Counted from the stretch's first letter, positions 5,586 to 64,000 are shown. The stretch is 64,000 nt of DNA from Pseudomonadota bacterium (GCA_041163625.1 JBEARB010000253.1:11034-75033), one strand, 5' to 3'. Notes: a model not told the origin generated them from the letters alone. Program-made: numbers and translations.

Positions 5586-5615
5586 GTCGTGCTCCTGTAG
5601 CGTGCGCGGGCGCGC

Positions 5616-6371: not shown

Positions 6372-6483
6372 GCAGCGCTCCCATAGCAAGGAAGGTGAGG
6401 CGGTCGTGCCGAGGAGGGGCGCGACCGGCCGGGAGTAAAGCCATCACGACGCACCGTGTCAATGACGGCGGTCGCGCGTTGGG

Positions 6484-24975: not shown

Positions 24976-25316
24976 CGTGAAGCCTCCGGACGCGTCGACG
25001 CCAACATCGACGGAGTGCCGCATGGGACAAGGCTGCGAAGTGTCGCGCCGCTCTCTGGGAGGGTCAAGTCGCCCCGGCCGAGGGGGGACGCCGAGCGGGG
25101 CCGCGACCGCGCCGTGCCTCACTCGGACGGCCGCATCCGCGTGATCCGCCATTGGCAGCTGGGGGCGCACATGATAGTCTTCCCGCAACGACGGAGGATC
25201 GTGTGCGCCTCCCCCCAACTCCGGGCGCACCGCGGTCTTGCCCGAAGGGGGCACCGGATCTCGCGTCCAACCCATCAGAACGATGGGTGGTCGGATCCGT
25301 CGTGGGAGAACGAACG

Positions 25317-28300
25317 ATGGCAGTCCTCGAGCGCATTCGCACCCTGTTCGGCACCATGCCACGCGGCCTCGGAGCCCTGGCGCTGGTGACCGCGATCGGC
25401 CTGTCGGCCTGTGCAGGCGAGTCCGGGAGCGACGCTGCAAGCGACGGCACCTGTGAGCCCGGCACGAAGGATTGCCTCTGCGCGACGGGCGCGGCGTGCG
25501 GCCCGGGCTTGTCCTGCGTCTCGGGGTCGTGCAAGGCCGGCGAGCAGGGTGCCCTGGGCATGGCCTGCTTCGCCAACATGACCTGCAATCCCGACGAGGA
25601 AGGCCGCGCGATGCTCTGCGTGGGCGGCGTCTGCCAGAAGGCGAGCTGCACGCAGGGCAGCGAGGGTTGCGGCTGTCTCGCCGGCGCGACCTGCGCCGCG
25701 GGGCTGACCTGCGACACCAGCACCGGTGCGGCGCTCTGCCAGAAGGCGGCCTGCGCGGACAACGTCGGCACGCTCGGCTGCGCCTGCGACGCGGACTACG
25801 GCTGCGCGGCGGGCCCGGGCGGTGCGGCGCTGGCGTGTGACGGCAAGCTGTGCATCTCGGCGATCTGCGCGCCGGGCACCGAGAACTGCTTCTGCGGCGA
25901 GAAGGCCACCTGCGCCTCGGGCCTGAACTGCGACGCCGGCACCTTCCGCTGTGTGAAGCCGAGCGGCTGCACCCAGGGCGAGTCGGGCTGTGCCTGCAAG
26001 GGCGACGGCAGCTGCATCGGCGACAAGCTGGTCTGCAACAGCAACGTCTGCGTGGTCGAGAACTGCCCGGCCGGCGAGATCGGCTGCACCTGCAAGGGCG
26101 ACGGCAGCTGCGCCGTCGGCGGCGACGCCCTGCTCGTCTGTCAGTCGGGCAAGTGCCTGCCCAAGGCGGGCTGCGCCGAGGGCACCCCCGGCTGCGCCTG
26201 CACCGCCACCGGCGGCTGCCAGGGTGACGGCTTCATCTGCGACAGCGGCACCAACACCTGCAAGGCGGTCTCCTGTGCCGCCGGCGCGCTGAACTGCGGC
26301 TGCAAGGCCGGCGCCACCTGCGACGCGGGCCTGGTCTGCGCGAACGGTCAGATCTGCGTCGACAACAAGGGCTTCCCCGGCGGTGCCTGCCTCGACGGCG
26401 ATCTCTGCAACGCCGGTGCGAAGTGCGACGGCGGCAAGTGCGCGACCTGCGCGCTCGGCAGCGAGGGCTGCGCCTGCTTCACCGGCGGCGGCTGCTTCGC
26501 CCCGCTGACCTGCCACCTCGGCAGCTGCGTCGCGCCCGGCAACTCGAGCACGACCGTGCCCGCTTCGCTCGACCCGCCGAAGGACGCGCAGTGCTGGACG
26601 CCCTGCAACCAGGGTGTGACCAAGCCCGACGGCACCTTCGTCGCGTGCGGCGCCGACGGCCTACTCCCGGGCTGCGTCGACGACCTGACCTGCGTCAAGG
26701 GCAGCTGCGTGAAGAAGGGCGACACGCCCGGCAAGTGCGAGACCGACCTGGACTGCGCCGAGCACCAGACCTGCTACCTCGCTGACGGCCACTGCTACTC
26801 GAACTGCAACGTCGACATGGACTGCGGCGACGGCGCGAGTTGCTACCGCCACGTCTGCCGCAAGACCTGCGACACCAAGGCGGGCTGCGACAAGGGTCAG
26901 TTCTGCAAGACGATCGACGGAGAGAACGGCTTCTGCATGCCGCTCGCGCCGCCGACCAAGTGCGAGGGTCCGCAGTGCGGTCAGAAGGCCGTCCTCGGTA
27001 GCTTCTCGCTGCAGGAGGACCAACTGAGCCTCTCGGACGCCAACGCGACCGGCCAGATCGTGGTCGACGTCGACAGCGCCTCGGAGACCTCGCTCAAGGT
27101 CCGCAAGGTCCGTCACTCGATGGTCGGCCAGGGCGGCGAAGAGGTGACCTGCGTCGCCGGCAGCAACAACTGCCCCTGCCAGCCCGGTGACGGCAAGGTC
27201 GTGCTCGCCGGTGTCACCTACTACTGCGACACCGCCAAGACCCCGCCGCTGCACTGGCTGAAGATTGGCACCAGCGACAAGCCCCTCGAGAAGGTGCAGT
27301 CGATCGACGTGAAGGTCGGCGCCGGCAAGACCAGCTTCACCCTGCTGCTGAGCACCGAGGGCGCCTCGCCCGCGCCGGCGTGGCAGGGCGTGGTCGAGAT
27401 CAGCCACCCGAACTACGGCGTCGGCGAGGTCTTCCTCTCCTACGCCGTGCGCCCGGACGGCCGCTGGATCGGCACCGCCTACTTCTTCGCCACCTTCGAG
27501 GACGAGGGCTTGGACAAGTGGCTGCTCAACCCGCAGGACTTCAACCTCGTCAAGAACGCGTTCGTGCAGCAGTGGCAGGTCTTCCGCAACCAGCCGATGG
27601 CCAACTACGAGATGATCAACGCGATGATGACCAGCGTCATCGACGAGACCTGGCAGTGGGAGAAGGTCCGCAAGGATTGCAAGAGCTTCGGCGAGAACGC
27701 CGCGTGCATCCCCTACGCCCCGCAGCAGCCCGGCTCGATCGGCGCCACCAGCGGCCTGTACAAGGTCAGCTCGGACTCGCGCACCATCCGGATGCCGAGC
27801 GGCGTCACAGAGCTGCCGCTCTCGTTCAACCTGAAGTCGACCGCCGACCCGACCCTGCTCACCGGCCGCATCACCACGGCCGACAGCTTGCAATACGGCG
27901 GCAACCCGTCGATTGGCGGCATCAAGCTCAAGCAGGATCCCGCCAAGGCCTGCACCGGCGGGCTGTGCGTCATCGGCGTGAGCGACATGAGCATCGACAT
28001 GGCGATCGGTGGTCGCTACGTCTCGAACAGCTCGGACACCACCTGCCAGGACATGCCGGCCGGTGCGTACGGCCACGTCGCGCTGCCGTGGTTGGTGCCG
28101 GGCTTCTTGGTCGGCACCGAGACCGACAACAAGACCAACACCGTCTACCGCTACGAGTGCCGTTCGAAGAAGGTGCCCTTCGGCGACGATCCGGCGCAGA
28201 TGGTCGCGAACATGACCTCGGCGGCCAGCAACCCGATCGCCGACGGCAAGCCGCGCAGCCGCACGCTGACGCTGCTCGACGGCGCGCTCATCAACCAAAC

Positions 28301-40292: not shown

Positions 40293-41288
40293 ATGACGGC
40301 CAACGAGGCAACGAGACCGGACCGGCTGCGCCGCGCCGTGGTGCGCACGCTGGCCTACGCCGATCTCTTCGATTTTCCGCTGCGGACCGAGGAGGTCTGG
40401 CGCCAGCTCCTGCTCGAGCCGGCGACGCGGTCGGAGATCGAGTCGCTCCTCTCGGACGCGGATGACGATCCCTTCCTCGCGAGCCGCGTTCGGCAGGTCG
40501 GCGAGTTCTGGACCTTGGCCGACCGCCCCGACCACAGCGCTCAGCGTGGACAGCGCACCGAAGCAGCCGAGCGTCTGATCGCCGAGCACCGCCGCGTGCT
40601 GCAGCTCGCCGCAGCCCTGCCCTGGGTGCGGATGATCGCGTTTTCGGGCGGCACCAGTCGCCGCAACTCGATCCACGACGACGACCTCGACCTCTTCATC
40701 GTCACCGAGCAGGGTCGCACCTGGTCGGTCTTCCTCGGCTTGGTCCTGCTCGCGCGCGCGGCCGGCTGCCGCGACGTGCTCTGCGCCAACTACCTCGTCG
40801 ACCGCGTACACATCGTCGTGCCCGATGGCGGCGACCTCTTCACCGGCCAAGAGCTGCTCGGACTCGAGCCGATCGCGGGTGAGCGGCAGCTACGGCGGAT
40901 GGCGACCGTCAACGATTGGGCACACAAACTGCTGCCCAACGCCAGGCTGCGACCGCGCAACCCGTTGCTCGGTGCGTTCGGCGACGAGGACGGCACGGCG
41001 GCGACCGCCAAGCGTTGGATCGAACGCGCCCTCTTGCCCGCCGGTTGGGCGGTCGAGCGCGTGGCGCGACGCGGCTTGGGCTGGCACCTCGGGCGCAAGA
41101 AGCAAGCGAGCAGCGGACGCGGCGGCGATATGTTGCTGCGGCCCGGCGTGCTGAAGCTGCACCAGAGCGACAACCGAGCTGCCGTGGTGCGCCGCTTCCG
41201 CGAGCGCCTCGACGCGCTCGGCGTGGCGGGCGAAGACCTGGATCGGCTGCTCGAGCCGCGGCGCCGCCGCGCCGGAGGCACCGCATGA
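40293..41288 (+). CDS. Hypothetical protein, possibly a nucleotidyltransferase fold; first gene of the radical SAM operon.
   Basis: Internal ATG 40293 of track ORF 40179..41288. FSGGTSRRNSIHDDDLDLFIV resembles the hG[GS]x9-13DxD motif of Pol-beta-type nucleotidyltransferases. The stop overlaps the next start (ATGA). Confidence 0.45.
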   Translation: MTANEATRPDRLRRAVVRTLAYADLFDFPLRTEEVWRQLLLEPATRSEIESLLSDADDDPFLASRVRQVGEFWTLADRPDHSAQRGQRTEAAERLIAEHRRVLQLAAALPWVRMIAFSGGTSRRNSIHDDDLDLFIVTEQGRTWSVFLGLVLLARAAGCRDVLCANYLVDRVHIVVPDGGDLFTGQELLGLEPIAGERQLRRMATVNDWAHKLLPNARLRPRNPLLGAFGDEDGTAATAKRWIERALLPAGWAVERVARRGLGWHLGRKKQASSGRGGDMLLRPGVLKLHQSDNRAAVVRRFRERLDALGVAGEDLDRLLEPRRRRAGGTA

Positions 41289-42865
41289 CGGCGCCGGCTT
41301 CCTGCGAGCTGCTGTTCGCGCACGCGTATTTCCTGCGCTTCGACCGCAAGCTCTACGAGGCGATGCAGCCCTATCCGCCGATGGGGACGATCGTGGCGGC
41401 GGCGGTGGCGCGGCAAGCCGGCCGAGAGGTCGCGCTCTTCGACGCGATGCTGGCGCAGGACGAGCGCGCCTTCGAGGCGGCGTTGGTCGCGCACAAGCCG
41501 CGGCTGGTCGTGCTCTACGAGGACAACTTCAACTACCTCAGCAAGATGTGCCTGCTGCGGATGCGCGAGGCGGCGCTGGTGATGCTGGCGGCGGCGCGGC
41601 GGCACGGCGTCCGCGCGTGGGTCTGCGGCTCGGACGCGTCGGACCATCCAGGGCTCTACCTCGACGCGGGCGCCGAGCTGGTGCTGGTCGGCGAGGGCGA
41701 CGACACGTTGGCGGACCTGCTCGGGCGAGGCTGGGATCGCGAGCCGCTGGACGTCGACGCGGCGGCGGGCATCGCGGGGCTGGCGCTGCGGCGCGGCGGC
41801 GAGCTGGTGCGGACGCCGCGGCGGGCGACGCTCAAGGCGATCGACACGTTGCCGTGGCCGGCGTGGGATCTGTGCGATCTCGAGCAGTATCGGCGCATCT
41901 GGCGGGAGCGGCACGGGCGCTTCTCGCTGAACTTGGTCAGCACGCGCGGCTGCCCCTACCACTGCAATTGGTGCGCGAAGCCGATCTGGGGCCAACGCTA
42001 CGCGATGCACAGCCCCGAGCACGCGGCGACGATGGCGACGCATCTGCGCGAGAGCTTCGGCGCCGAGCACCTCTGGTGGATGGACGATATCTTCGGCTTG
42101 AAAAAGGGCTGGGTCGGCGCGTTCGGCGAGGCGATGCGGGCGCGCGGCGGCACGCTGCCGTTCAAGGCGCTCTCGCGAGCGGACCTGTTGGTGCGCGAGG
42201 GTGAGGCCGAGGCGTTCGCCGCCGCCGGCGCCGAGATCATCTGGATGGGCGCGGAGTCGGGCAGCCAGGCGGTGCTCGACGCGATGGACAAGGGCACCAA
42301 GGTCGGCGAGATCGAGGACGCCACCGCGCGGTTGCACGCTGCCGGCGTCGAGGTCGCCTACTTCTTGCAGTTCGGCTACCCCGGCGAGACGCGCGCCGAC
42401 ATCGAGGCCACCCGCGCGATGCTGCGTCGCTGCAAGCCCGACGATATCGGCATCTCGGTGAGCTACCCGCTGCCCGGGACCCGCTTTTTCGACCGCGTCG
42501 CGGACCAGCTCGGCGCCAAGCAGAACTGGGTCGACTCCTCCGACCTGGACATGCTCTACGAGGGGCCCTTCCCGACGGCCTTCTATCGGCACCTGCACCG
42601 CGTCGTGCACATGGATTACAAGTCGCGGCGGACGATGTGGCGCTTGCGCGGGCAGACGCCGCGGACGCATCGCCCGAGCGCGCGCGAGCTGGCGCGCGCC
42701 GCCATCGACCGCGCGATGCTGCCGCTGGCCGAGGCGCAGCTCGACCGGCTCGCGGCGCAGCCGCACGAGGGTGTGCGGCCGACCGGCGCGACGATGGACT
42801 TCGACGCCGCCGCAACGCCGAGCGCGCCCGACGGCAGCGCGCAGGCGCCGGGAGCTTCGGCATGA
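41285..42865 (+). CDS. B12-binding domain radical SAM protein.
   Basis: Internal ATG 41285 (MTAPASCELLFAHAYFL…). The N-terminal cobalamin-binding-like Rossmann domain (LVVLYEDNF…WVCGSDAS) precedes CPYHCNWC (CxxxCxxC) and a TIM-barrel radical SAM core (IWMGAESGSQ). Confidence 0.8.
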   Translation: MTAPASCELLFAHAYFLRFDRKLYEAMQPYPPMGTIVAAAVARQAGREVALFDAMLAQDERAFEAALVAHKPRLVVLYEDNFNYLSKMCLLRMREAALVMLAAARRHGVRAWVCGSDASDHPGLYLDAGAELVLVGEGDDTLADLLGRGWDREPLDVDAAAGIAGLALRRGGELVRTPRRATLKAIDTLPWPAWDLCDLEQYRRIWRERHGRFSLNLVSTRGCPYHCNWCAKPIWGQRYAMHSPEHAATMATHLRESFGAEHLWWMDDIFGLKKGWVGAFGEAMRARGGTLPFKALSRADLLVREGEAEAFAAAGAEIIWMGAESGSQAVLDAMDKGTKVGEIEDATARLHAAGVEVAYFLQFGYPGETRADIEATRAMLRRCKPDDIGISVSYPLPGTRFFDRVADQLGAKQNWVDSSDLDMLYEGPFPTAFYRHLHRVVHMDYKSRRTMWRLRGQTPRTHRPSARELARAAIDRAMLPLAEAQLDRLAAQPHEGVRPTGATMDFDAAATPSAPDGSAQAPGASA

Positions 42866-44262
42866 TCGATCTGCTGCTGGCGCACGGCTGGTTCTTGCAC
42901 GAGGACCCGGCCGAGCAGAAGGCGATGCGGCCCTACCCCCCGCTCGGGATGCTTTACGTCGGCGCCTACCTGCGTCAGCAAGGCTTCCGCGTCGCGGCGT
43001 GGGACGGGACCTTCCGCACCCGCGGCGAATTCCTCGGCGCGGTGCTCGCCGCCCGCCCGGCCGTCGTCGGCCTGTACGCCAATATGGTCACGCGGCGGCA
43101 CATCCTGAAGATGGCGGCGGCGGCCAAGCGCGCCGGCTGCCGCGTCGTGGTCGGCGGACCCGATCCCGCCAACTACGCCGACCGCTACCTCGCCCACGGC
43201 ATCGACGCGGTCGTCGTCGGCGAGGGCGAGCTGACGCTGACCGAGCTGATGCCGCTGCTGCTCGACGGCAAGCGCGATTTCTCCCGTATTCCGGGCGTGG
43301 TGTGGCAAGACAGCGACGGCGAAGTCGTCCGCAACATGCCGCGGGCGCAGGTCAAAGACCTCGACAGCCTGCCGAACCCGGCGCGCGACCTGATCGACAT
43401 CGGCGCCTACCTCGACTGTTGGAAGCGCCACCACGGCAGCAGCAGCGTGAACCTGATCACTGCGCGCGGCTGCCCGTTCCACTGCAATTGGTGCAGCCAC
43501 GCGGTCTACGGGCACAGCCACCGCCGCCGGACGCCCGAGCACGTCGCCGACGAGGTGCAAGGGCTGCTCGCGCGCTACCGGCCCGACCAGCTCTGGTACG
43601 CGGACGACGTGTTCACCATCCACAAGAAGTGGCTGCTCAAATACGCCGACGAGCTCGAGCGCCGTGGCCTGCGCGTGCCTTTCGAGACCATCACCCGCGA
43701 GGACCGCCTCGACGACGAGATCATCGCCACCCTCGCCCGCATGGGCGCGCGGCGGATCTGGGTCGGCGCCGAGTCGGGTAGTCAGCGCATCCTCGACGCG
43801 ATGCAGCGCAGCACCGACGCCGAGCGCGTGGTCGAGATGGTGCGCAAGCTCGAGGAAGCCGGCATCGAGACGGGCATGTTCCTGATGCTCGGCTACGAGG
43901 GCGAGGAGCAGGCCGATATCGAGGCCAGCATCGACATGGTCGCGCGCGCCCGCCCCGGCGTCTTCCTGACCACCGTCAGCTACCCCATCGCCGGCACGCC
44001 CTACGCCGCCAAGGTCGAGGACCGCACCTTCGAGGCCCGCGCCTGGGCCGACGGCAGCGACCGCGACCGCCACATCCGCGGCCGGCACTCGATGCGCTGG
44101 TTCGAAGCCGCCAACCGCTGGATGGTGCACGAGGTCGCACGCCGCCAAGCCGTCGCGGTCGGCGTCGGCAGCGGCCGGGACGCCGCAAAGATCGGCTGGC
44201 ACGCCGCACAGAGCGCCCTCGGGCGGTTGGGGATGCGGCGGTTCGACGCGGAGCGGACGTAG
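42862..44262 (+). CDS. B12-binding domain radical SAM protein (paralog of the upstream gene).
   Basis: ATGA overlap start 42862 (MIDLLLAHGWFLHED…). CPFHCNWC; RIWVGAESGSQRILDAM. The overall collinearity with the previous protein is clear. Confidence 0.8.
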   Translation: MIDLLLAHGWFLHEDPAEQKAMRPYPPLGMLYVGAYLRQQGFRVAAWDGTFRTRGEFLGAVLAARPAVVGLYANMVTRRHILKMAAAAKRAGCRVVVGGPDPANYADRYLAHGIDAVVVGEGELTLTELMPLLLDGKRDFSRIPGVVWQDSDGEVVRNMPRAQVKDLDSLPNPARDLIDIGAYLDCWKRHHGSSSVNLITARGCPFHCNWCSHAVYGHSHRRRTPEHVADEVQGLLARYRPDQLWYADDVFTIHKKWLLKYADELERRGLRVPFETITREDRLDDEIIATLARMGARRIWVGAESGSQRILDAMQRSTDAERVVEMVRKLEEAGIETGMFLMLGYEGEEQADIEASIDMVARARPGVFLTTVSYPIAGTPYAAKVEDRTFEARAWADGSDRDRHIRGRHSMRWFEAANRWMVHEVARRQAVAVGVGSGRDAAKIGWHAAQSALGRLGMRRFDAERT

Positions 44263-54757: not shown

Positions 54758-56995
54758 ATGAACGAGCGAATCGAGCGCCGCTTCGGGCGCGGGCTGGCCG
54801 TGCTCTTGGCGGCGACGTGCACGTTGGCCGCGGCGGGCTGCAGCGACGACGACGGCAAGGGCAGCGGCAACACGGCCGACACCGCCGGCGCCGACAGCGC
54901 GGGCGACGTGGCCGGCGACGCCGTCGGCGATGCCACCAGCGACGGCAGCGGCGACGGCGACGCGGTCAGCAACGACGCCGCCGATACCGTCGCGATCCCA
55001 CACGTCCTGGAGCTGCAGCCGACCGTCGCCAAGGCCGCGGTCGATCCCTTCGCCGGCGGCGGCACGACCTCGTGCGCGACCTTCCGCGACACCCGCTGCG
55101 AAGGCGGCAAGCAGCAGACCTGCGCCGTCTACGACACCGCCAAGGGCGCGTTTGCCGAGACGGTGCCGGCGCTGGTCGAGCGCGCCTACGACTACGACCG
55201 CTGGTTCGACCGCTTCAGCAGCCCCGACGGCACCGCCGCCGAGCGCGTCTTCCTCGCGCCGATGCCCGCCGAGGCGACCGAGGGCGTCTGGGGCGACCCC
55301 GCCGCGTTCGCGCGCTACGACGGCACCGGCGACGGCGCGATCTGGACCGGCGCGGCGCTGACCTCGGCGGCGATGCGCTACGCCACCACCGGCACCGCCG
55401 CCGACCGCGCCCGCATGGTCGAGATCACCGAGCACCTGCTGCGCCATTTCGACGTGACCGGCGTGCCCGGCTACCTCGCGCGCCATACCTTCCTGCTCGC
55501 GCCCGAGGGCTCGCCGCGCTACGACGCGCATATCGTCGAATACGGCGAGAAATCGGTCTCCGCGCGCGACGTGAAGGTGCGCGCGAGCGAGCTCGGTGTG
55601 CTGCCCGAGGTCTACGCCAAGGGGCTCCCGGACGGAAAGGGCGGCGTCATCGCGGCCGAGCCGATGTGGAACGGCAACCCCTCGATCGACCAATACACCG
55701 GCCCGATGATGGCGTTCCCCATCGTCTACGAGCTCGTCGACGACGCGACGCTGCGCAAGCGCATGGCCGACCACCTCGTCTGCTACCTGAACCGACTCAA
55801 ACGCGTCGAGATCATCCACCTGCAGCAGAACCCGCAGCTGCTCGAGTCGGTGACGGCGTATTTCGGCGGCGGCAACCTGCAGCTCGACCCGGGCGACCTC
55901 GACCCGGCCAAGCTCGACCGTGTCGTCGGCTACTACCTCGACGACCTGAACAGCGCCAACGTCGACACCTACGACCGCAGCTGCCCGAAGGCGCCGGCGA
56001 CCACGCCGACGCTGGTGCTCGACGCCGCCGACCCCGGCTTCCTCGGCGAGATGCTGCTCTTCGCCAACCGCGTCGCCGCCGGCAGCCAGAAGACGCCCAA
56101 CGCCGAGGGCATCGCGCACATGTACGTGCCCAACGTCCGCGGCGGCGACGCCGTGCACATGCTGCACCTCGCGGCGATGGCCTATCGCTTTACCGGCGAC
56201 GAGGTCTACCGCACCTTCTTCTTCGAGACGCTGATCGAGGAACTGCAGGCCATCCCGGTCGCGAATACGACGCAAGCCTTCCAGACGCCCGATTGGTGCA
56301 AGGCCTTCTACGGCGACCACATCACCTACACGACGATGTGGCAGTTCGCGACGATGCTGAAGCCCGGGCCGCTGCTCGACGCGATGATCGACGTGATGCA
56401 CACCGAGGAGTGGGACAAGACCCTCGAGCGCGCGCACAACGCGCAATTCGACGTGATGTACGCCTCGCTGATGCCCGACTCGGATCCACGCGACCGCGAC
56501 CTCGCCATCGCCGACGCCCAAGCCGTGCTCAAAGCCTTCGGCGGCAACGGCGGCGTGCTCTCCGGCCCGCGTCGGACCTACGGGATCGCGCCGCAGAAGG
56601 TGATCGACAACTTCCCCACCGGCACCACCCTCGCCTGCCCGAGCGAGGGCGAGCGCAAGAGCTGCGAGGAAGGCATCAAGGTCTTCGGCATCCAGCTCGC
56701 CGGTGAGTCGATCTCGCACGCCTGCGACGGTCGTCCCGGCGAGTGCAAGATGCAGGACGGCGCCTGCACGCAAGGCATGGCGAGCGAAGGCCTACCGCCG
56801 TCGCTGCGCGCCTACGCCGACTTCGCGTGGCAACGCAGCCCGTACCAGATCGGCGACGGCGGCGATGGCGGGCGCAAGCAATCGCCCGGCATGGACCTGA
56901 GCCAAGCGTTCTGGCTCGCCGCGCATTATGGCTACCTCGCCGAGGCGAAGGGGTTGGTGCTGGCTTGGAAGGATACGGGGACTTGCGACAAGTAG
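54758..56995 (+). CDS. Secreted lipoprotein (745 aa), possibly a glycan-active alpha/alpha-toroid-type enzyme; function unknown.
   Basis: MNERIERRFGRGLAVLLAATCTLAAAGCSDDDG has a lipobox and is followed by the D/G/S/A linker seen in other lipoproteins here. The remaining ~650 aa are a globular domain. Confidence 0.65.
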   Translation: MNERIERRFGRGLAVLLAATCTLAAAGCSDDDGKGSGNTADTAGADSAGDVAGDAVGDATSDGSGDGDAVSNDAADTVAIPHVLELQPTVAKAAVDPFAGGGTTSCATFRDTRCEGGKQQTCAVYDTAKGAFAETVPALVERAYDYDRWFDRFSSPDGTAAERVFLAPMPAEATEGVWGDPAAFARYDGTGDGAIWTGAALTSAAMRYATTGTAADRARMVEITEHLLRHFDVTGVPGYLARHTFLLAPEGSPRYDAHIVEYGEKSVSARDVKVRASELGVLPEVYAKGLPDGKGGVIAAEPMWNGNPSIDQYTGPMMAFPIVYELVDDATLRKRMADHLVCYLNRLKRVEIIHLQQNPQLLESVTAYFGGGNLQLDPGDLDPAKLDRVVGYYLDDLNSANVDTYDRSCPKAPATTPTLVLDAADPGFLGEMLLFANRVAAGSQKTPNAEGIAHMYVPNVRGGDAVHMLHLAAMAYRFTGDEVYRTFFFETLIEELQAIPVANTTQAFQTPDWCKAFYGDHITYTTMWQFATMLKPGPLLDAMIDVMHTEEWDKTLERAHNAQFDVMYASLMPDSDPRDRDLAIADAQAVLKAFGGNGGVLSGPRRTYGIAPQKVIDNFPTGTTLACPSEGERKSCEEGIKVFGIQLAGESISHACDGRPGECKMQDGACTQGMASEGLPPSLRAYADFAWQRSPYQIGDGGDGGRKQSPGMDLSQAFWLAAHYGYLAEAKGLVLAWKDTGTCDK

Positions 56996-57005
56996 GGCTG
57001 AGGCT
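56880..57005. repeat. Left copy of a ~126-bp direct repeat (the 3' end of the 54758..56995 lipoprotein gene).
   Basis: aatcgcccggcatggacctgagccaagcgttctggctcgccgcgca… reappears at 57914..58039 with about 6 mismatches. Confidence 0.85.
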
Positions 57006-57094
57006 GGCGCCGACGTGACGGCGCGGCGGGCGGTGCTGATCCCCCGTGGAGCTCGTGCTAGGCTGCACCGAGGCGTCGATCTCGGAGGTCGGTC

Positions 57095-57343
57095 GTGGAT
57101 GAAACGCGGGAGAACGGAGCGAAGCGGTCCCCGCAACCCGCGGTGGTGGACGGCATCTACTGCTTCGAGATCGAGCCCGGCGTCATCATCGATACGCGGC
57201 CCGGCGCGACACAGGACGAAGACGGGGTCGATATCTCGCTGATCGAGATGATGTTGCAGCTGACGCCGCGCGAGCGGCTCCGCACGGTCGCACAATGGAC
57301 CGCGCTGGCCGAGGCAGGAGGGGTAGCCCGTGGCGACGACTGA
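57095..57343 (+). CDS. Small (82 aa) protein; possible partner (antitoxin-like) of the downstream nucleotidyltransferase.
   Basis: GGAGG upstream. Non-repetitive, protein-like sequence. Its stop overlaps the GTG start of the next gene. Confidence 0.4.
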   Translation: MDETRENGAKRSPQPAVVDGIYCFEIEPGVIIDTRPGATQDEDGVDISLIEMMLQLTPRERLRTVAQWTALAEAGGVARGDD

Positions 57344-57815
57344 CCTCGACCGCTTGCTGACGGCGGTCATCGAGGGCGGCGTGGAGTTCGTGGTCGTCGG
57401 GGCTGCGGCGGCCGTGTTGCAGGGGGCGCCTCTCGGCACCCTCGACCTCGACATCGTTCATGCACGGACGCCAGAGAATGTGCGCCGCCTCAAGACGGTT
57501 CTCGACGAGCTCGGAGCCATCTACCGACATCAGCATGGTCGTCGCTTGGCCGCGCGAGAGGAGATTCTGCTCGGACCCGGGCACAACCTCTTTGCGACAC
57601 GTCTCGGTCCACTGGACGCCCTCGGCGCGCTGGACGGGGCGGATTTCGAGGTCCTGATTCCATTGTCGCGTTGGATCGACTACGGCGGCGCGCCGGTCCG
57701 TGTCCTCGGAATCGAGACCCTGATAGCGATGAAGCGCCGGGCGGGAAGACCGAAAGACTTGCTCGCGATCCCGATATTGGAGCGGATGCTCTCGATGGAG
57801 CTGCCCGACGAGTGA
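57330..57815 (+). CDS. Nucleotidyltransferase-fold protein (MNT/AbiEii-like, toxin-antitoxin-type).
   Basis: GTG start with a GGAGGGG RBS. VVVGAAAAVLQGAPLGTLDLDIV (G-x-n-DxD NTase motif) and C-terminal LIAMKRRAGRPKDLLAI. Confidence 0.55.
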   Translation: MATTDLDRLLTAVIEGGVEFVVVGAAAAVLQGAPLGTLDLDIVHARTPENVRRLKTVLDELGAIYRHQHGRRLAAREEILLGPGHNLFATRLGPLDALGALDGADFEVLIPLSRWIDYGGAPVRVLGIETLIAMKRRAGRPKDLLAIPILERMLSMELPDE

Positions 57816-57913
57816 CAGCGTCGGCACTGGAACTGGCGTGTCAGGACTTGACACTTGACATCTTTGCGGCGCCAAAGGCGTAAAGTATCCGGTCCTGATA
57901 GCGAATTCCAAAG

Positions 57914-58039
57914 AATCGCCCGGCATGGACCTGAGCCAAGCGTTCTGGCTCGCCGCGCACTACGGCTACCTCGCCGAGGCCAAGGGGTTGGTGCTGGCTT
58001 GGAAGGATGCGGGGACTTGCGAGAAGTAGGGCCGAGGCG
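57914..58039. repeat. Right copy of the direct repeat (a diverged duplicate of the lipoprotein gene's 3' end including the stop).
   Basis: It encodes …SPGMDLSQAFWLAAHYGYLAEAKGLVLAWKDAGTCEK*. The differences from the left copy are mostly synonymous or conservative (T->A, D->E). Confidence 0.85.
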
Positions 58040-58139
58040 GGCACGCTAGTAACGAATTCTTGACTTTTGCTGTGTGCTGGTAAAGGATTCGTATCTCGTC
58101 GGCGTCCGTGGGCACGCGACCTTGACCACCGAGTGCGCC

Positions 58140-59318
58140 ATGTCGAATCGAGAGACGGGACGGTACGAGCGCACATCGACTGGCGGTGAGCAGGTTCGCG
58201 CCTTCGTGCCCCACGCGTTGCCTCCTGCTGACCCCGCGATTGTCATCGGGAGCCGACTGGCGGAGCGGGTGCGTGCCGCGGAACAGGCTCTCGTGCGGCT
58301 CGAGTTGGCCGGTGAGATGGTTCCCTCACTCGACTGGTTGATTTACGCCTTCGTGCGCAAGGAGGCGGTGCTTTCCTCCCAGATCGAGGGGACGCAGGCG
58401 ACGCTCATGGACCTCCTCAACTACGAGGCGGAAAGGAGTCCGCCCCTGCCGAACGCGGACGTCGAGGAGGTCTGCAACTACCTCGACGCGCTGACCTTCG
58501 CCCGGGCGCAGCTCAGCGACCCATCGGGGCTGCCACTCTCGATGCGCCTGCTCAACGAGACCCATCGGCGCTTGCTCCAAGGCGTCCGCGGTGAGAACAA
58601 GCTGCCGGGGCAGGTACGCCGAAGCCAGAACTGGATCGGAGGCAGCCGCCCGGGCAACGCGGCCTATGTGCCCCCGCCGCCGAATGCGCTCGCCGACGTG
58701 CTCTCGGCGTTCGAGCGGTACATCCATGCCGACGACGAGCTCCCGCCGGTGGTCCGAGCGGGTCTGCTCCACGTGCAGTTCGAGACGATCCACCCCTACC
58801 TCGACGGAAACGGGCGCATCGGACGCTTGCTCGTGACGCTGCTGCTGGAACATTGGCGCCTGCTCACGCGCCCGCTGCTCTACCTGAGCCTGTTCTTCAA
58901 GCGCCATCGGCAGGAGTACTACCGGCGGCTCGATGCCGTGCGAGTCGACGGTGATTGGGAAGCCTGGCTGGATTTCTTCCTCGATGGCGTGGCGACGATC
59001 GCTGACGAAGCCGTCGCGACCTCACGCGACCTCTTCTCGCTGGTGACCGCCGACCGGCAGCGCGTCATCCACCACACAAGCGTGAACCTGCTCGCCGTGC
59101 AGCTCTTCGAGCGGCTACCGAGTCGGCCCATCGTGAGCACATCTTGGGTCGTCGAAGCGCTGTCGACCACCAAGCCCACCGCCGGCCGTGCCATCGAGGC
59201 GCTCGAAGCCGCCGGCGTCCTCGTCGAGACCACTGGCAAGAAGCGCGACCGCGCCTATGTGTACCAGGCGTACCTCGACCGACTGCGCGCCGGGACCGAG
59301 CTTGGAGATGACGGCTGA
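58140..59318 (+). CDS. Fic family protein (Fic domain plus C-terminal winged helix).
   Basis: HPYLDGNGRIGRLL matches the Fic motif HPFx[DE]GNGR. The ~392-aa length and layout are typical. Confidence 0.8.
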   Translation: MSNRETGRYERTSTGGEQVRAFVPHALPPADPAIVIGSRLAERVRAAEQALVRLELAGEMVPSLDWLIYAFVRKEAVLSSQIEGTQATLMDLLNYEAERSPPLPNADVEEVCNYLDALTFARAQLSDPSGLPLSMRLLNETHRRLLQGVRGENKLPGQVRRSQNWIGGSRPGNAAYVPPPPNALADVLSAFERYIHADDELPPVVRAGLLHVQFETIHPYLDGNGRIGRLLVTLLLEHWRLLTRPLLYLSLFFKRHRQEYYRRLDAVRVDGDWEAWLDFFLDGVATIADEAVATSRDLFSLVTADRQRVIHHTSVNLLAVQLFERLPSRPIVSTSWVVEALSTTKPTAGRAIEALEAAGVLVETTGKKRDRAYVYQAYLDRLRAGTELGDDG

Positions 59319-59561
59319 CCTGACGGCGGAGTCAAAGCACCGAGCCAAGGGCAAAGGTGTTAGGTGCCTGGTCCTGACACCGAATTACTGACACCGTACC
59401 TCAATTCCGCCGCTCGGGTGGATCAGCTTCTACCCGGATGCCGCCGATCACGCGTGGCTCCTTCCGTCAATGATCACGGCCGGTCTGGGATCTTGCGATC
59501 GCCGTGGAAAATTCTCCTTGACTTGGACAATACGGCGGCAGACAGTCCAACTATCGCAACC

Positions 59562-59597
59562 AGCGGCTCCGCAGCAACCAGCGGCTCCGCAGCAACC
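59562..59597. repeat. Perfect 18-bp tandem duplication immediately upstream of ATG 59608.
   Basis: agcggctccgcagcaacc x2, preceded by a partial caacc. Confidence 0.8.
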
Positions 59598-59607
59598 AGG
59601 GGTGCCG

Positions 59608-60402
59608 ATGGCCACGCAACCGAAGCCAATCTTTCTCGCAACCGACGTGGAGCTACAGACCCTACCCGACGGCGCTGCGGTCATCCACTGGGCGCCACGC
59701 GAGACGTGGTCGGCTGGCAACGGTGCCCGGTTCTACACCGTCTACTACCAAGTCCTTCAGAACAGCGACGCGACGAACAACACCGTGCGCGTGCGTCTAC
59801 AGGGTAGCGCAGACGGCAAGAGTTGGGTCAACATGGACGACCTGCCGCTGGAGTTCGACGACATCGACAACGCCACCAACCTTGAGGCCACGACCTACTG
59901 GCCGAGTGAGTTGCTGCGTGCCGCGCCTTTCCTCCGCTGGGGTCTGGAGATCGAGAACGGCGCGGGCAGCTTGGGCACTGCACGCGCAACAGTGGTCGTT
60001 GTGCCGTGGTGGACGGACATGGACATCCTCCGCACCGTGCTCGCGCAGAACCAGGCGCTGGAGACGGCCACCGGCACGACGTACGAACTCGCGAACTCCT
60101 CGCTGAACCTGCTCGGCTTCACCAGCGGTGCGCTGCACGTGCAGACGTCTGGGGTGACCGGGGGGTCGACGACGTTCTCACTCTTGGCGAGCATGGACGA
60201 TCCCGATGATCCCGCGGCGGTCTGGGTGCCGGTTCCCAGTTCGCCGACGCTGGTGCTGGACGCCACGACGACGGCCGGTGCATTGCTGTTCAGTACCCAA
60301 GCGGGCATGTCGTTTCGTGTGGCCTACGTCAACACCGTCACCCTTACGGGCACGCCGGTCGTGGATTGGGTTCGGGTGCTGGCGCGCCGCGTGGGCGGCT
60401 AG
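59608..60402 (+). CDS. Hypothetical beta-rich protein (265 aa); the alternative start at 59470 would add a PQQPAA repeat N-terminus.
   Basis: Track ORF 59470..60402(+). Reduced GC (~60%). No recognisable motif and no signal peptide. Confidence 0.5.
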   Translation: MATQPKPIFLATDVELQTLPDGAAVIHWAPRETWSAGNGARFYTVYYQVLQNSDATNNTVRVRLQGSADGKSWVNMDDLPLEFDDIDNATNLEATTYWPSELLRAAPFLRWGLEIENGAGSLGTARATVVVVPWWTDMDILRTVLAQNQALETATGTTYELANSSLNLLGFTSGALHVQTSGVTGGSTTFSLLASMDDPDDPAAVWVPVPSSPTLVLDATTTAGALLFSTQAGMSFRVAYVNTVTLTGTPVVDWVRVLARRVGG

Positions 60403-60603
60403 GCGGCCTGCCGATGTTCGGTCTACCGCTCGGCATGATGCGTAGTCCGCGCAGTCACAGCGCCGGCACGAGATGTAGAGCGCGTCGTCGGAGGTCCGCC
60501 CGGCCACTGAAGTGGCGGGCTATCTTTGCGCCGTTCGCCCTCGCGGACGGCAACACAGGGCTCAACGTCAACCGCACGCGCTGTCAGTTTGTGGGAGGTC
60601 CGC

Positions 60604-60933
60604 ATGACCACGGAACGTGAACTTCCATCCAGTACCGCCACGAGCGACGTTGGCGGAGAGCCGTGTGAGTTGGAATTGCGGATTCGAGCAGTATTGGGGG
60701 GCGTGAATCCAGGGCTCCATGAAATGGAGGCCCGCGATGCGTTGATGGCGATTCACGAACTCGCAGGCCTCTGCATTGCCGAGAGGCCCGACGAGGTCGG
60801 GCGGATCGCGCCGTGGTTGTCGGAGGTGGTACTCACCGATTTGCAATCCGACATCGAACAGGCGAGCGATTCCACAGTATTACTCGGATTGCAGATCGTC
60901 AAATCGACTCTGCAGGGACGGGAGACAGAATGA
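60604..60933 (+). CDS. Hypothetical small protein (109 aa).
   Basis: GGGAGG sits 6 nt upstream of ATG 60604. The stop overlaps the next start (ATGA). Confidence 0.5.
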   Translation: MTTERELPSSTATSDVGGEPCELELRIRAVLGGVNPGLHEMEARDALMAIHELAGLCIAERPDEVGRIAPWLSEVVLTDLQSDIEQASDSTVLLGLQIVKSTLQGRETE

Positions 60934-62318
60934 TCGAACTTCTTATCAAGGTCATTGCAGCACTACTCAATGGCGTGTCGCGGTACCGATCGTTCGTGTA
61001 CAAATCTGCCAATGGCGCGTCATGGGAAGTTCTGTTTCGCTTTGAGAACGATCCCAGCGACGAGCGATACGGCGGGGGGTTGGCGCTGCTTAGTGCGCGC
61101 TTCGCCCTCAACACCGACACTATGCAACTGTCGAATATTTCTCCCGTCTCATACGTTCAGTTCACCACATCTCGGACCACCTACTTCACCAGGAATGCAG
61201 CTGGTCCGGATTCGGTCTCCGTGGAAAGCCCCCCACTCCTTGATGGAATGGGTAAGCCGTATGGCGGAACCGCAGGCGGGGTGCGGTTGCTGCCGCGGCC
61301 TTGGCTTGTTTCAAACGGCGCAAACCCTAAAGCATTCGCGATGGGCGGCAAAGAGCAGGCCGCAATCGAAGCGTCAATGAAGTCCGACCCCACGACTCGG
61401 CCAGTAGCCAAGGATGTCGTCGCGATCCATGTACTGGTTCCCCAAGACTCGACATCAAACTTTCCGATCGGAACGGTTCAGTTCGATGTTCGTGCCCGCT
61501 TTCAGGCTGCAAACTACCAGTTCGTCTCCGGGTTTCGCTTCTTCGACAATGGCGTCATTGAGCCCTACGTCTCTGCAACCGGAGCGACACTCCCATCAGT
61601 CGATGGGCCCACACTCCCGGTCGATTCGCGGGCGAAGGTTCATCTTCACGACTTCTACCTGTGGTATCTGCTCGACTCCAGTTCAATGGTTGGACCGCAC
61701 ATACGCGCACAAACTATCCGGCTGGACCATGAAGGTGCTCTCCCCTACTTCGTGCACTCTGAGGTAGGCACGTTCAAGACACTAGGCGAGAACCCATGGC
61801 CAATCGTTGAAGATGAGACTATCACTGGCCATCTCGTGGGCCTTCGTCTGCTGAAGAACCTTGATCTCGACTTGCTTCTGAAAGAAGGAGAGGAACTACC
61901 CGGCACCTGGGCTTGGCTCGAACAGGAGAAATGGGGCGTGATCATCGACTGGCAGCACGACGACATGTCGGATGTAAAGGACTACTTGGCCGAATGGTCA
62001 ACCTACACCGATCAGGGGTGGCGTGCGCTACTTCGGGCTGTCAAGTTCGACGGAGACGCGGCCCGATTTATTGCCAAGGTGGCCAATACAACGCACGCAA
62101 TTCAGGTCTCGCCTGGCGATCAAACGGCAACCGGCGCAAAATCTCTTGCCTCGGGCATGGATGTTTTGGGCTGCTTGCGCCTATATCACCTACATCTTCC
62201 TTCCAGACCTGACGCGAACCTTACGCCGCTCCGCAGCGTTTGGTTCGCAATTCGCCCTCGTGTGTGGCCTAAGACGGCGTATTTCGACGCAGTGTACAAG
62301 GATGTGAACAAGCAATAG
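60930..62318 (+). CDS. Hypothetical protein (462 aa), translationally coupled to the previous gene; ~55% GC.
   Basis: Internal ATG 60930 of track ORF 60813..62318, with GGGAG upstream. MIELLIKVIAALLNGVSRYR…; I recognise no family. Confidence 0.55.
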   Translation: MIELLIKVIAALLNGVSRYRSFVYKSANGASWEVLFRFENDPSDERYGGGLALLSARFALNTDTMQLSNISPVSYVQFTTSRTTYFTRNAAGPDSVSVESPPLLDGMGKPYGGTAGGVRLLPRPWLVSNGANPKAFAMGGKEQAAIEASMKSDPTTRPVAKDVVAIHVLVPQDSTSNFPIGTVQFDVRARFQAANYQFVSGFRFFDNGVIEPYVSATGATLPSVDGPTLPVDSRAKVHLHDFYLWYLLDSSSMVGPHIRAQTIRLDHEGALPYFVHSEVGTFKTLGENPWPIVEDETITGHLVGLRLLKNLDLDLLLKEGEELPGTWAWLEQEKWGVIIDWQHDDMSDVKDYLAEWSTYTDQGWRALLRAVKFDGDAARFIAKVANTTHAIQVSPGDQTATGAKSLASGMDVLGCLRLYHLHLPSRPDANLTPLRSVWFAIRPRVWPKTAYFDAVYKDVNKQ

Positions 62319-62338
62319 CAGGGGCCATTGGGGGGCAC

Positions 62339-64000
62339 ATGGCTATCCACTATCGAGTTTCTCCACTTCGAAGCCTCGCAACTATCGCCCTAACTCAGAT
62401 TCTAATTGGGTGTGGCGACGGAGGAGCGGGCGAGAAGGCAACCGCAAACGTAGCTGTGAAATGTGAGTCGGGTAGTGCAAAACTGCTGCGTTCTCAAGCG
62501 ATCCCGACGGCATGTTCCGCCACAGATCGAAAGAATGCGGGAGCGTTGGGTCCTCTCGTTGAGAACGAAGGTCTATGGTACCAAGGGCAGCAATGGTTTC
62601 ATTACCGTCAAGGATGCCGATCCTTCGAGGCCCGCCCGTCGGAGGACACAAGCGAGCTGATTGTCGAAGAGTTCGAGTCCGGGGAACCAAGGATCGTGCG
62701 AAGAGAAGTTGGTCGACTCCCGTTGCAGCGCCGCTCGGTGAAGTTTGCGCCCGGGGCTGGCGCTTCAAGCTACTTCGGCATGGGCTCGTATTCCCTGCCG
62801 GTGGTGATTCGCCTCTCTGCGAACACCGTCCTCCTGCCTCTCTGCCGTGTGTTCGGTTCACATGACGCGCCGAGCAACCGTTTCGACTTCGTCGGCCAAC
62901 AGTTCGTGGTGATTGATCATGGATCGGACCCTCCAGCGCTTCGGGAAGTTAGCGGCAAGGGTCTGGAGTTCGATGGAATTTGTGTGAGCGCCGTCGGCGT
63001 ACGAGACGGAGTCGCATCCGCGCTGTTGGCGATTCAGGTTCACCCGGATACTCCGAGCGCCGAGGCTGCTCCCCCCAGCGGAGGCACGCTGCACGGACTC
63101 CATGTCGATATCGTTCGTGTTGAACGAGCGGGAACGGAATTCGTCGCCAAGCGCTTGGGCGTGTTGCCGCCCGCGTGGAAGGACGTGCGAGCGATTTCGC
63201 GCCGGGGCCAGGAAGCGCTTCTGGTAGGCTACCGTAGCAAGAGTGACGACACGACTGTTGTTGGGCCGGAAGCCAAGTCCATCTCGCTCACATTGAAGTT
63301 CGCTGCGCTCCGATCATCAGGTGACTTGGTTGAGATTGGGGCTGGGTCTGAGGGGACCTGGCAAGTGAATGCATTGATGCGCTGCACAGACCCAGCATGG
63401 TTCTGCGGCTACGAAATAGGTCCAACTTTCGCGGGGTCGGCAGTTGGCAAGGGGAGCCTCAAACTGAACCTCCGCAACGAGCTTCGTGTTCATGCAAGGA
63501 GTGTCCAGGCAGCCTCTGCCGAAGTTGGGCAGGTTAACGAAGGGCATGTTGGCTTCCTGACAAGGGCAGAACAGCAGTTTCCCCAAGGATTTCACGCTTG
63601 GGATGCAGTGACCCCACCTGTGGCGACGGCCGACCCCGGGAAACTTGACGCATGGCTCGAACCCGGTTGCACTAGGACAAATTCCTACTTTTTCCAGCCA
63701 GTCACCTTGCCCTCGGGAGAGCTCCTCCTCTTCGCTGTTGTGCGGGCCAAGCCCGAATCATGCTCCGGCGTGTTTGCCATCCGGATGACTCACCACGGTT
63801 CGATTCGGTGGCTAAAGCGCTTGCCTCTCTCAGCGAGCACGGCCTGGGGCGAAATCCGCTACGTCCCGGAGGTGGACGCATCCGGCTTCGTATGGTGGGG
63901 GCCGACCTCCTTTCTTGCGCCGTTCGCGGTCACCGACCCGGTCGACATTTCCGCATGTGGCGGTCTCGGCTGGGACGGCTGCAGCGACGGCAACGCCTGC
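62339..64000 (+). CDS. Lipoprotein, partial (3' end beyond the window).
   Basis: My own translation from ATG 62339 gives MAIHYRVSPLRSLATIALTQILIGCGDGG (lipobox). The frame is open to the window end and finishes …ACGGLGWDGCSDGNAC. It is not in the ORF track because no stop falls inside the window. Confidence 0.5.
   Translation, partial: MAIHYRVSPLRSLATIALTQILIGCGDGGAGEKATANVAVKCESGSAKLLRSQAIPTACSATDRKNAGALGPLVENEGLWYQGQQWFHYRQGCRSFEARPSEDTSELIVEEFESGEPRIVRREVGRLPLQRRSVKFAPGAGASSYFGMGSYSLPVVIRLSANTVLLPLCRVFGSHDAPSNRFDFVGQQFVVIDHGSDPPALREVSGKGLEFDGICVSAVGVRDGVASALLAIQVHPDTPSAEAAPPSGGTLHGLHVDIVRVERAGTEFVAKRLGVLPPAWKDVRAISRRGQEALLVGYRSKSDDTTVVGPEAKSISLTLKFAALRSSGDLVEIGAGSEGTWQVNALMRCTDPAWFCGYEIGPTFAGSAVGKGSLKLNLRNELRVHARSVQAASAEVGQVNEGHVGFLTRAEQQFPQGFHAWDAVTPPVATADPGKLDAWLEPGCTRTNSYFFQPVTLPSGELLLFAVVRAKPESCSGVFAIRMTHHGSIRWLKRLPLSASTAWGEIRYVPEVDASGFVWWGPTSFLAPFAVTDPVDISACGGLGWDGCSDGNAC

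Follow-up and report, generated by a model that had tools for sequence, protein, structure and literature searches.

In the auxiliary modules of type VI secretion systems (T6SSs), a gene for an adaptor is followed by one for an effector and then by one for a periplasmic or lipoprotein immunity protein. Quinone-dependent amine oxidation is known as a weapon from lysine oxidases of the LodA/AlpP type, secreted quinoproteins with an antibacterial or autolytic action via H2O2; these use a cysteine tryptophylquinone (CTQ) cofactor, have a fold different from that of the copper amine oxidases (CuAOs) and need the flavoprotein LodB. Mobile modules can also accumulate at a single site, as in ICESt1, ICESt3 and their integrase-less derivatives, the cis-mobilizable elements (CIMEs), integrated elements that have accreted in tandem at the 3' end of fda. 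Here we describe a locus with features of each of these, an island at the end of a 64,000-nucleotide stretch of DNA from a Pseudomonadota bacterium (GCA_041163625.1 JBEARB010000253.1:11034-75033; hereafter the window, with positions counted from its first letter). The island carries a rare four-gene cassette, D-E-F-G, whose third gene product appears to be related to CuAOs and which we tentatively read as a conflict-type system. The cassette is laid out as follows:

59608..60402, + strand: D, 264 aa, tandem jelly-roll protein (TNF/C1q-like) according to its predicted structure
60390..60603, no strand: D-E intergenic region with a recombination breakpoint, located by sliding identity to contig L003
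60604..60933, + strand: E, 109 aa, from its open reading frame (ORF) and alignments
60930..62318, + strand: F, 462 aa, probable CuAO catalytic-domain homolog, from profile comparisons
60930..62318, + strand: key codons of F, from the family alignment (D105, 61242-61244; N195-Y196, 61512-61517; H238xH240, 61641-61649; H420/H422, 62187-62195; D428, 62211-62213)
62339..64000, + strand: G, lipoprotein with lipobox LIGC, from its translation; runs off the window end and is 595 aa in full, as read from contigs L001, L002 and L005, with its stop codon at window-equivalent 64126

D-E-F-G is one conserved four-gene unit. Its order is kept in L003/L004, where F is 61% identical to that of the window, in L005 (97%), in L009/L010 (F 31%, D 23-25%) and in L013 (F 25-28%), with genes that are closely spaced or overlap. 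The original prediction, made from the sequence of the window alone, had described a small ORF, B, a Fic gene, three genes of unassigned family and a lipoprotein gene, all of which are present and on the + strand. It had treated the three unassigned genes as a co-transcribed block and proposed a search for their synteny in other genomes: the gene order does hold, down to 23-31% identity, and the operon is indeed conserved, with the count raised to four, as the lipoprotein gene G belongs to it too. The predicted ATGA overlap of E and F is confirmed (60930-60933), so that E is translationally coupled to F, and E and the third gene overlap in the same manner in the L015 and L024 loci. Between the window and L005, all genes are under purifying selection, with ratios of nonsynonymous to synonymous substitution (dN/dS) of 0.05-0.33 (D, 0.06; E, 0.16; F, 0.32; G, 0.33).

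Relatives of the cassette are few. An exhaustive HMMER search of 1.84 billion representatives returned only three representative clusters for F, word-indexed searches returned three to five relatives each for F and D, and neither protein has a relative among the GTDB representatives (185,579 species-representative genomes). No relatives of D-E-F-G were found in viral contigs, phage records or plasmid records, and the cassette is known from a handful of metagenome contigs and one metagenome-assembled genome (MAG). D and F are identical to the NCBI MAG proteins RIT45_3155 and RIT45_3157 (Pseudomonadota bacterium), both labelled hypothetical and encoded on a contig of 82,215 bp (MEY3014420/MEY3014422). 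D, E, F and G have no PADLOC, DefenseFinder-type, PHROG or NCBIfam match (PADLOC-DB v2: no family at E<=1), the window sequences of D, E and G have no Pfam match either, and the L015 variant and its neighbours have no PADLOC match. In a separate observation, a JGI contig of 2039 bp (P0003/P0012) holds another F copy, with 99% identity across the first 158 residues and a frameshift thereafter, which is either a pseudogene or an assembly error.

The original prediction had assigned no motif to D, E or F. This is overturned for F, which bears a CuAO catalytic-domain signature. PF01179 is the sole Pfam family matched by all four F members, the best of which, P0007, scores 26.8 bits (E 3e-6), just under the gathering score of 27. 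In the PDB, the F-family profile picks out the amine oxidases of Hansenula and human, the match falling on the motif of the topaquinone (TPQ) cofactor. When this profile was compared with a second one made from E. coli TynA and a bridging metagenomic CuAO-like protein (L014), the two were related with a probability of 90% (E 1.5e-6), with NY and HxH in register; in hhalign, N195-Y196 falls on the NY of TynA, with Y196 on its TPQ Tyr. The four-sequence family alignments show no variation at N195, Y196, H238, H240, H420, H422 and D105; at D428, the L013 member has Glu and the other three have Asp. MAFFT likewise aligned the Asn-Tyr pair with the TPQ Tyr of TynA and HPAO, the two residues that follow being Gln/Leu and Phe rather than Asp/Glu and Tyr/Asn; all three His aligned, and the distal His and the next acidic residue of F fell on H689 and the EEWP motif of TynA. 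The spacing from Tyr to His is 42/44 and 224/226 residues in F, compared with 58/60 and 223 in TynA. CuAOs are the top fold matches of the predicted structure of F, for which the CuAO beta-sandwich is a candidate fold, with Pichia lysyl oxidase, which has the CuAO fold, among the matches. By Pfam and MAFFT, F covers only the CuAO D4 domain and a short N-terminal helix, domains D1-D3 being absent. From these sequence comparisons we conclude that F is very probably a remote homolog of the CuAO catalytic domain, whereas the case for its being an active quinone/copper oxidase is evenly poised.

This result bears in two ways on what had been predicted. The three genes had been described as being of unknown family, and the operon does belong to an undescribed one, whereas F appears homologous to a known enzyme family. 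Homology to an ordinary metabolic family had also been named as something that would speak against a new conflict system: F comes close to this through its CuAO relationship, but the homology is distant and the context non-metabolic. The L014 protein (338-1420 in WNFE01152358.1) is another stand-alone CuAO-like protein, with the motifs SAKFQCGWYQY, KVHLHNFYFRVDLDIDG and IRAHHEPR, and the gene that follows it encodes a cupredoxin-like lipoprotein (YHCTIHSTM). The L014 protein forms a bridge between the F family and canonical CuAOs and suggests that further minimal families of the CuAO-like kind have gone unannotated.

The other three proteins are of different character. D, E and F have no signal peptide, transmembrane segment or hydrophobic segment and contain 0-2 Cys; the maximum KD19 hydropathy value of F is 1.30, consistent with the lack of a transmembrane segment. 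D is the most conserved member of the cassette, has no Cys and only two Lys, and has its best structural matches among phage capsid cement or decoration proteins. E is poorly conserved except for an N-terminal ERxLP[SD]S motif (ERELPSS in the window), which also occurs in L024 and L015 and is repeated in some homologs; E-like proteins are 73-216 aa long, with long low-complexity regions. G contains at least 12 Cys (12 in the part within the window), the LIGC lipobox and a C-terminal Cys-rich repeat of the Dicty_CTDC type (28.5 bits). Its homologs are also lipoproteins with such a repeat, and the N-terminal three quarters of G vary together with F. Searches of the D and G profiles against PDB sequences gave nothing useful.

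Comparison of closely related loci reveals allele replacement within the cassette. The DNA of D is 98-100% identical between the window and L003, and at ~60390 the identity falls within ~100 bp from 97-100% to ~50-65% over E, F and most of G, before rising again to 98% at the 3' end of G. More distant loci carry other genes in the third position. In L015, D and an E-like gene are followed by a gene for a 759-aa protein, beta-helix-like by eye and with no database match, and then by one for an FGE-sulfatase (formylglycine-generating enzyme) lipoprotein with a Dicty_CTDC repeat; in L024, a D that is 78% identical is followed by a 73-aa protein starting with MEERMLPS, whose gene overlaps that of an unrelated 312-aa protein. 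The third gene has the lowest GC content among the cassette genes in all five loci measured. The 759-aa and 312-aa proteins, searched as single sequences against PDB sequences, gave nothing useful, and the 312-aa protein was rejected as a cryptic relative of F (hhalign probability 0.07%).

On the L015 contig, a large enzyme-like protein is paired with a Cys-rich lipoprotein three times in adjacent positions. At 1308-7876 of this contig (JGI Ga0485164_0001694) lie two pairs of a transglutaminase-like protein and a Cys-rich lipoprotein, of 733/299 and 595/255 aa, whose transglutaminase-like members are paralogs (BLASTP 1e-16). An IS91-type Y2 transposase, which adjoins the cassette, separates these pairs from the D-like cassette, and one pair is preceded by a 135-aa beta-rich protein, which was rejected as a homolog of the D domain (hhalign probability 1.5%). 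FGE-sulfatase proteins recur beside the cassette, at 5691-6113 (- strand) of L013 and, in the fourth-gene position, at 13355-14488 of L015. FGE is a copper-dependent, aldehyde-forming oxidase; its recurrence beside a CuAO-like cassette may or may not be a coincidence.

D-E-F-G lies in a larger structure, the remaining features of which are listed here:

54758..56995, + strand: host lipoprotein gene, 745 aa, lipobox AAGC (ORF with a third-codon-position GC content, GC3, of 0.94)
56875..57008, no strand: direct repeat copy 1, the true 3' end of the lipoprotein gene plus 13 bp, forming the left border; 134 nt, 93% identical to copy 2 and aligned with the copies in L001, L003 and L005
57095..57343, + strand: small ORF A, 82 aa, start uncertain (ORF list)
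57330..57815, + strand: B, 161 aa (ORF), overlapping A by 14 nt
57838..57908, no strand: left arm of the internal repeat, specific to the island and containing the palindrome GTGTCAGGACTTGACAC (alignment and pattern search); the arm also precedes copy 3 downstream of G
57909..58042, no strand: direct repeat copy 2, a displaced pseudo-3' end (repeat search, 93%), dividing A/B from Fic and D-E-F-G
58140..59318, + strand: Fic gene of the SoFic type, 392 aa (PADLOC SoFic; Pfam Fic_N and Fic)
59351..59380, no strand: inverted copy of the repeat arm just after Fic, 30 nt, 80% complementary to 57838-57867
59556..59591, no strand: perfect 18-bp tandem duplication (GCAACCAGCGGCTCCGCA x2), directly upstream of the D start codon (repeat search)
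window-equivalent 64203-64315, no strand: direct repeat copy 3, just past G, from the same-strain contig L001

The stretch is a horizontally acquired, composite island of exchangeable modules separated by gene-end repeats. It starts directly after the stop codon of the host lipoprotein gene, a gene with no Pfam or NCBIfam family, and extends from ~57.0 kb to ~64.3 kb, with its right border ~300 bp past the window end; its length is put at ~7.3 kb because the DNA after repeat copy 3 returns to 73.7% GC with a gene of GC3 0.89, the right flank being known from ~500 bp of L001 alone. The final ~115-134 bp of the lipoprotein gene are present three times, bounding and subdividing the island, and copies 2 and 3 bear an extra left arm of ~75 bp with the palindrome GTGTCAGGACTTGACAC. 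The modules are a small ORF with a weakly nucleotidyltransferase-like protein, a SoFic-type Fic AMPylase, and the four-gene operon; the inverted arm after Fic and the arm at 57838 together bracket the Fic module with inverted arms. The acquisition that had been proposed is thus borne out by the deviation in GC and GC3, the gene-end direct repeats, the 74% GC DNA after copy 3, and the gain, loss or replacement of modules between strains that are >96% identical. Indeed, the A/B module (57031-57837) is absent from the 97%-identical strain L005. At 1081-1330 of the L005 contig, the gap corresponding to A/B holds two tandem units of ~125 bp, each with a gene-end remnant (GGACTTGCGACAAGTAG) and the palindrome CCCGGGAATGAATTCCCGGG. 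Contig L023 ends just after the host lipoprotein gene.

The island is compositionally uneven. GC content is 70.0% at 1-57000 and 61.9% at 57001-64000. Relative to the 1-kb windows of 1-57000 (mean 0.700, sd 0.029), GC is mildly low at 57-60 kb (0.64-0.655, z -1.6 to -2.1), lower at 60-61 kb (0.630, z -2.4) and strongly low over 61-64 kb (0.563, 0.576 and 0.613; z -4.8, -4.3 and -3.0). GC3 is 0.62-0.65 for E, F and G and 0.78-0.83 for B, Fic and D, compared with ~0.8-0.97 for host genes. The predicted fall from ~70% to ~55-60% is therefore real as a drop, but the lower figure applies only to ~60.5-64 kb.

In its layout the island is reminiscent of integrase-less modules that have accumulated at a gene's 3' end. 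The interval from 56996 to window-equivalent 64315 encodes no integrase or recombinase, a search of viral contigs for the repeat-arm palindrome was negative, and neither an Rfam match (56500-64000) nor convincing promoters or terminators were found. An island targeted to a tRNA gene was rejected, as the window contains no tRNA, and a prophage or plasmid origin has no support, given that no relatives of the cassette occur in viral contigs, phage records or plasmid records. The GCAACCAGCGGCTCCGCA repeat of 18 bp upstream of D is present in two copies in the window and ~3.5 in L024 (about 200-280), and may be a variable-number repeat that affects D expression.

Of the two modules that precede the cassette, the first had been predicted to comprise a small protein and an MNT/AbiEii-like nucleotidyltransferase. 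The gene pair is present, but the family match is not: B has only sub-threshold Pfam matches (DUF2204, E 0.008, 16.3 bits against a cut-off of 20.3; DUF6036, E 0.1, 12.9 against 23.6) and no PADLOC, NCBIfam, PHROG or PDB match. A has no family match (Pfam, PADLOC, NCBIfam, PHROG), and it is called as a gene in contig L022. B is possibly a nucleotidyltransferase-fold protein, and a toxin-antitoxin (TA)-like cassette is plausible for A/B on the basis of architecture. The Fic protein is matched by the PADLOC SoFic model PDLC03963 (E 5.3e-112; residues 18-383 on model positions 5-359 of 361) and agrees with both of the patterns tested: the catalytic HxFx(D/E)GNGRxxR, with HPYLDGNGRIGR at residue 218 (58791-58826), and the inhibitory (S/T)xxxE(G/N), with the inhibitory-helix motif SSQIEG at residue 79, from 58374. 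It scores 160.4 bits against the NCBIfam equivalog NF046030, below the cut-off of 550, and we accordingly place it, by profile score, in the SoFic family and not as an equivalog of the Shewanella protein. Its dN/dS (window against L005) is 0.26.

What the cassette does is a matter of weighing several readings. The one we favour, which remains somewhat short of an even chance, is that D-E-F-G is a polymorphic conflict cassette of an enzyme and a lipoprotein on a conserved D-E scaffold. For some role in conflict, broadly taken, the balance is level; a division of labour among effector, adaptor and immunity protein is a more tentative proposal than the cassette reading itself. D, with its tandem TNF/C1q-like jelly rolls, would be the conserved scaffold. 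E would be an adaptor whose N-terminal ERxLP[SD]S motif docks on D and whose variable remainder holds the cargo, and the third gene would supply a polymorphic enzyme cargo, be it CuAO-like, beta-helix-like or the 312-aa protein. F would bind Cu(II), convert Tyr196 into a quinone cofactor and oxidatively deaminate a primary amine to an aldehyde, H2O2 and NH3, its substrate being a free amine, a polyamine or a side chain of the Lys or diaminopimelate type on an envelope macromolecule. G would be the extracytoplasmic cognate partner of F, most simply an immunity or neutralising protein, and the cassette would act as a polymorphic effector-immunity module, not as a catabolic pathway. The most specific version is possible and at the same time doubtful: that D-E forms a conserved core presenting or delivering interchangeable enzyme cargos, each with its cognate Cys-rich lipoprotein, and that F is the first copper/quinone amine oxidase to have been co-opted for conflict, where as an effector it might oxidise envelope amines (such as the Lys or diaminopimelate acceptor of peptidoglycan) or polyamines, or make H2O2.

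Several points weigh against this reading. The F of the window scores only 12.4 bits against PF01179 (E 0.07), below the gathering threshold of 27, and the residue after its Tyr is Gln or Leu, not the Asp/Glu of CuAOs. The catalytic-base Asp of CuAOs (D383 in E. coli numbering) lies opposite non-conserved residues of F in the MAFFT alignment, so that the amine oxidase chemistry could be altered or lost; the invariant D105, in a D-G-M motif ~20-25 residues upstream of the D383 position, could serve as a substitute. The model of D shows two jelly rolls at a pLDDT of 78.5, confident in one of five AlphaFold2 models, and its jelly-roll matches are generic. VgrG, PAAR, Hcp, Rhs, CdiA and CdiB genes are absent from the window and from L003, L005, L009, L013, L015 and L024; with no secretion or delivery gene linked in any locus, the delivery route is missing. 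For G, the role of a helper, of a receptor or even of the true effector is equally conceivable. The two F alleles belong to the same family, and the polymorphism rests on three cargo types from ~10 short contigs. The functional steps beyond homology are inferred from sequence, the family having no characterised relative, and its extreme rarity makes its general importance uncertain.

An anti-phage system, as the original prediction had envisaged, is an unlikely but not negligible alternative, in which D would sense a phage structural protein and F would be the effector, through a burst of H2O2 and aldehyde or the destruction of polyamines, beside SoFic in a defence island. The cassette does adjoin the PADLOC SoFic gene, and SoFic is a published abortive-infection toxin (PMC12249575). 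Other TA-like or mobile genes adjoin the cassette elsewhere: in L009 a Pfam RHH_1 gene is followed by a 138-aa ORF, read as PIN-like by eye and without a Pfam match, and in L015 there is the Y2 transposase. In L013, a small upstream ORF was judged, by eye alone, to be ribbon-helix-helix (RHH)/BrnA-like, which would also fit. The patchy and rare distribution, the replacement of the cassette between strains and the resemblance of D to phage cement and decoration proteins point the same way. Against this, D, E, F and G have no PADLOC, PHROG or NCBIfam match, nor do the L015 neighbours have one in PADLOC; run on the island, PADLOC reports SoFic only. The linkage to SoFic is seen in the window lineage alone, Fic being absent from L009, L013, L015 and L024, so that the toxin-type neighbour is there as predicted, but a specific partnership is not, other loci carrying other neighbours. 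No nuclease, NTPase, TIR, SIR2 or similar module is present, and phage, plasmid and viral collections yielded no relatives that would indicate an arms race. An obligate, exported, disulfide-rich lipoprotein is unusual for intracellular abortive-infection systems, and the presence of the Cys-rich G in the unit points to an envelope or extracellular process rather than to a classical intracellular anti-phage system. No relevant link between amine oxidases and either anti-phage systems or T6SS effectors emerged from a search of the literature. The anti-phage part of the predicted new conflict system is supported by no match in defence databases, the linkage to SoFic is not conserved, and this reading is weaker than that of a conflict cassette.

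The same envelope setting could instead belong to a surface structure, a reading that we hold to be improbable. D would then be a structural subunit comparable to BclA/C1q, Ena pili, exosporium or phage cement proteins, F a lysyl oxidase-like cross-linker or maturase acting via aldehydes, and G an anchor or assembly factor. Pichia lysyl oxidase is among the matches of F, the fourth gene of L015 encodes a lipoprotein with an FGE-sulfatase domain, FGE is also a copper-dependent, aldehyde-forming oxidase, and the transglutaminase-like members of the neighbouring enzyme and lipoprotein pairs are of a cross-linking type. D has only two Lys and no Cys, however, and D, E and F lack an export signal. 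The free replacement of the third gene by unrelated proteins would be odd for a dedicated maturation enzyme, and extreme rarity and an island location argue against a core structural role.

Less probable still is niche metabolism, with F as a divergent amine oxidase that supplies nitrogen or carbon and D, E and G as accessory binding proteins. F is homologous to CuAOs, and bacterial CuAOs such as TynA are catabolic (feaB-tynA-paa context), but no aldehyde dehydrogenase, transporter or regulator is linked to the cassette in any locus, F has neither a signal peptide nor domains D2 and D3, and its place behind the same D-E pair is taken elsewhere by non-oxidases. Allelic replacement with sharp breakpoints and the three representative clusters among 1.84 billion fit this reading poorly as well.

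That the cassette makes a ribosomally synthesized and post-translationally modified peptide (RiPP), with E as a precursor whose leader motif is recognised by D, F or other third genes modifying its variable C-terminal part and G serving export or immunity, can be largely set aside: E does combine a short conserved N-terminal motif with a variable remainder and is translationally coupled to the enzyme gene, but at 73-216 aa with long low-complexity regions it shows neither a core nor a cleavage site that could be recognised, the loci contain no protease, no transporter and no known RiPP recognition element, and we know of no RiPP tailoring enzyme of the CuAO or beta-helix type. A conflict cassette accounts better for the swapped cargos and the absence of pathway genes than does any of the surface-structure, catabolic and RiPP-like readings.

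The rest of the window looks like ordinary chromosome, with genes for ETF, a Ser/Thr kinase, SpoIID, LolCE-like permeases, an ABC ATPase, radical SAM proteins and a DUF4215 Cys-rich repeat protein. At 24981-31763 it contains an ORF of 2261 aa (GC3 0.94) without a Pfam match, which coincides with a stretch of lower GC (63-64% at 29-32 kb), and at 40883-44262 two B12-binding radical SAM ORFs, whose stop-to-stop frames overlap at 42205-42865.

Neither the island type nor SoFic is new; what is undescribed is the D-E-F-G family and the minimal CuAO-like branch, both built from known folds. If F is active, it would represent a minimal, single-domain branch of the CuAO superfamily that is now annotated as hypothetical, and quinone/copper oxidative deamination would take place inside a mobile cassette of the conflict type; to our knowledge, no bacterial effector or defence system is known to use this chemistry. 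Built from a conserved scaffold, an adaptor with a motif, an exchangeable enzyme and a Cys-rich lipoprotein, the cassette lends itself to direct tests of the idea.

Set against the described systems, the island differs from ICESt1/ICESt3 in having no integrase or conjugation genes in the available sequence and in that no empty site or excised form was seen, and its repeats are long (115-190 bp) and 88-95% identical, unlike those of ICESt1/ICESt3/CIME. It is like these elements in that its modules are bounded by direct repeats of the 3' end of the target gene, with internal copies and no recombinase inside the modules. The Fic protein falls below the equivalog cut-off of the SoFic reference and has no downstream AS1-like small gene that we could find, but it fits the SoFic model over its full length with catalytic and inhibitory motifs intact. 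D shares only 5-17% sequence identity with the BPP-1 cement protein, PBSX XepA, SPbeta YomS and BclA, the fold being generic, and is unlike TNF/C1q-like and cement proteins in its tandem two-domain build and in having no sequence-detectable relatives outside its own tiny family.

F has no sequence relationship to LodA/AlpP, from which it also differs in fold and cofactor, so that the likeness is confined to the proposed concept of a quinone amine oxidase used as a weapon via H2O2. In comparison with CuAOs (TynA, HPAO, Arthrobacter AGAO, human DAO), F is a stand-alone domain of 462 aa without D1-D3 or a signal peptide, has NYQF/NYLF in place of NY(D/E)(Y/N), does not clearly conserve the catalytic-base Asp, and has its gene in a mobile cassette of four genes, not in an operon for amine catabolism. 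It nevertheless keeps an Asn-Tyr that aligns with the TPQ precursor of CuAOs, the HxH and the distal His at a spacing suited to copper ligands, and its motifs HLHxFY...LD and HxP...D resemble HQHIYNFRLDLD and THVARAEEWP of CuAOs. Finally, D-E-F-G departs from effector-immunity cassettes in that no locus contains a delivery gene or trafficking domain and in that D and E fall in no known adaptor family. It resembles them in its order, in which conserved accessory genes precede the signal-less enzyme F and then the lipoprotein G, in its position on an island, and in its variation, as F and G co-vary between strains with identical flanks and unrelated enzymes are swapped behind D-E.

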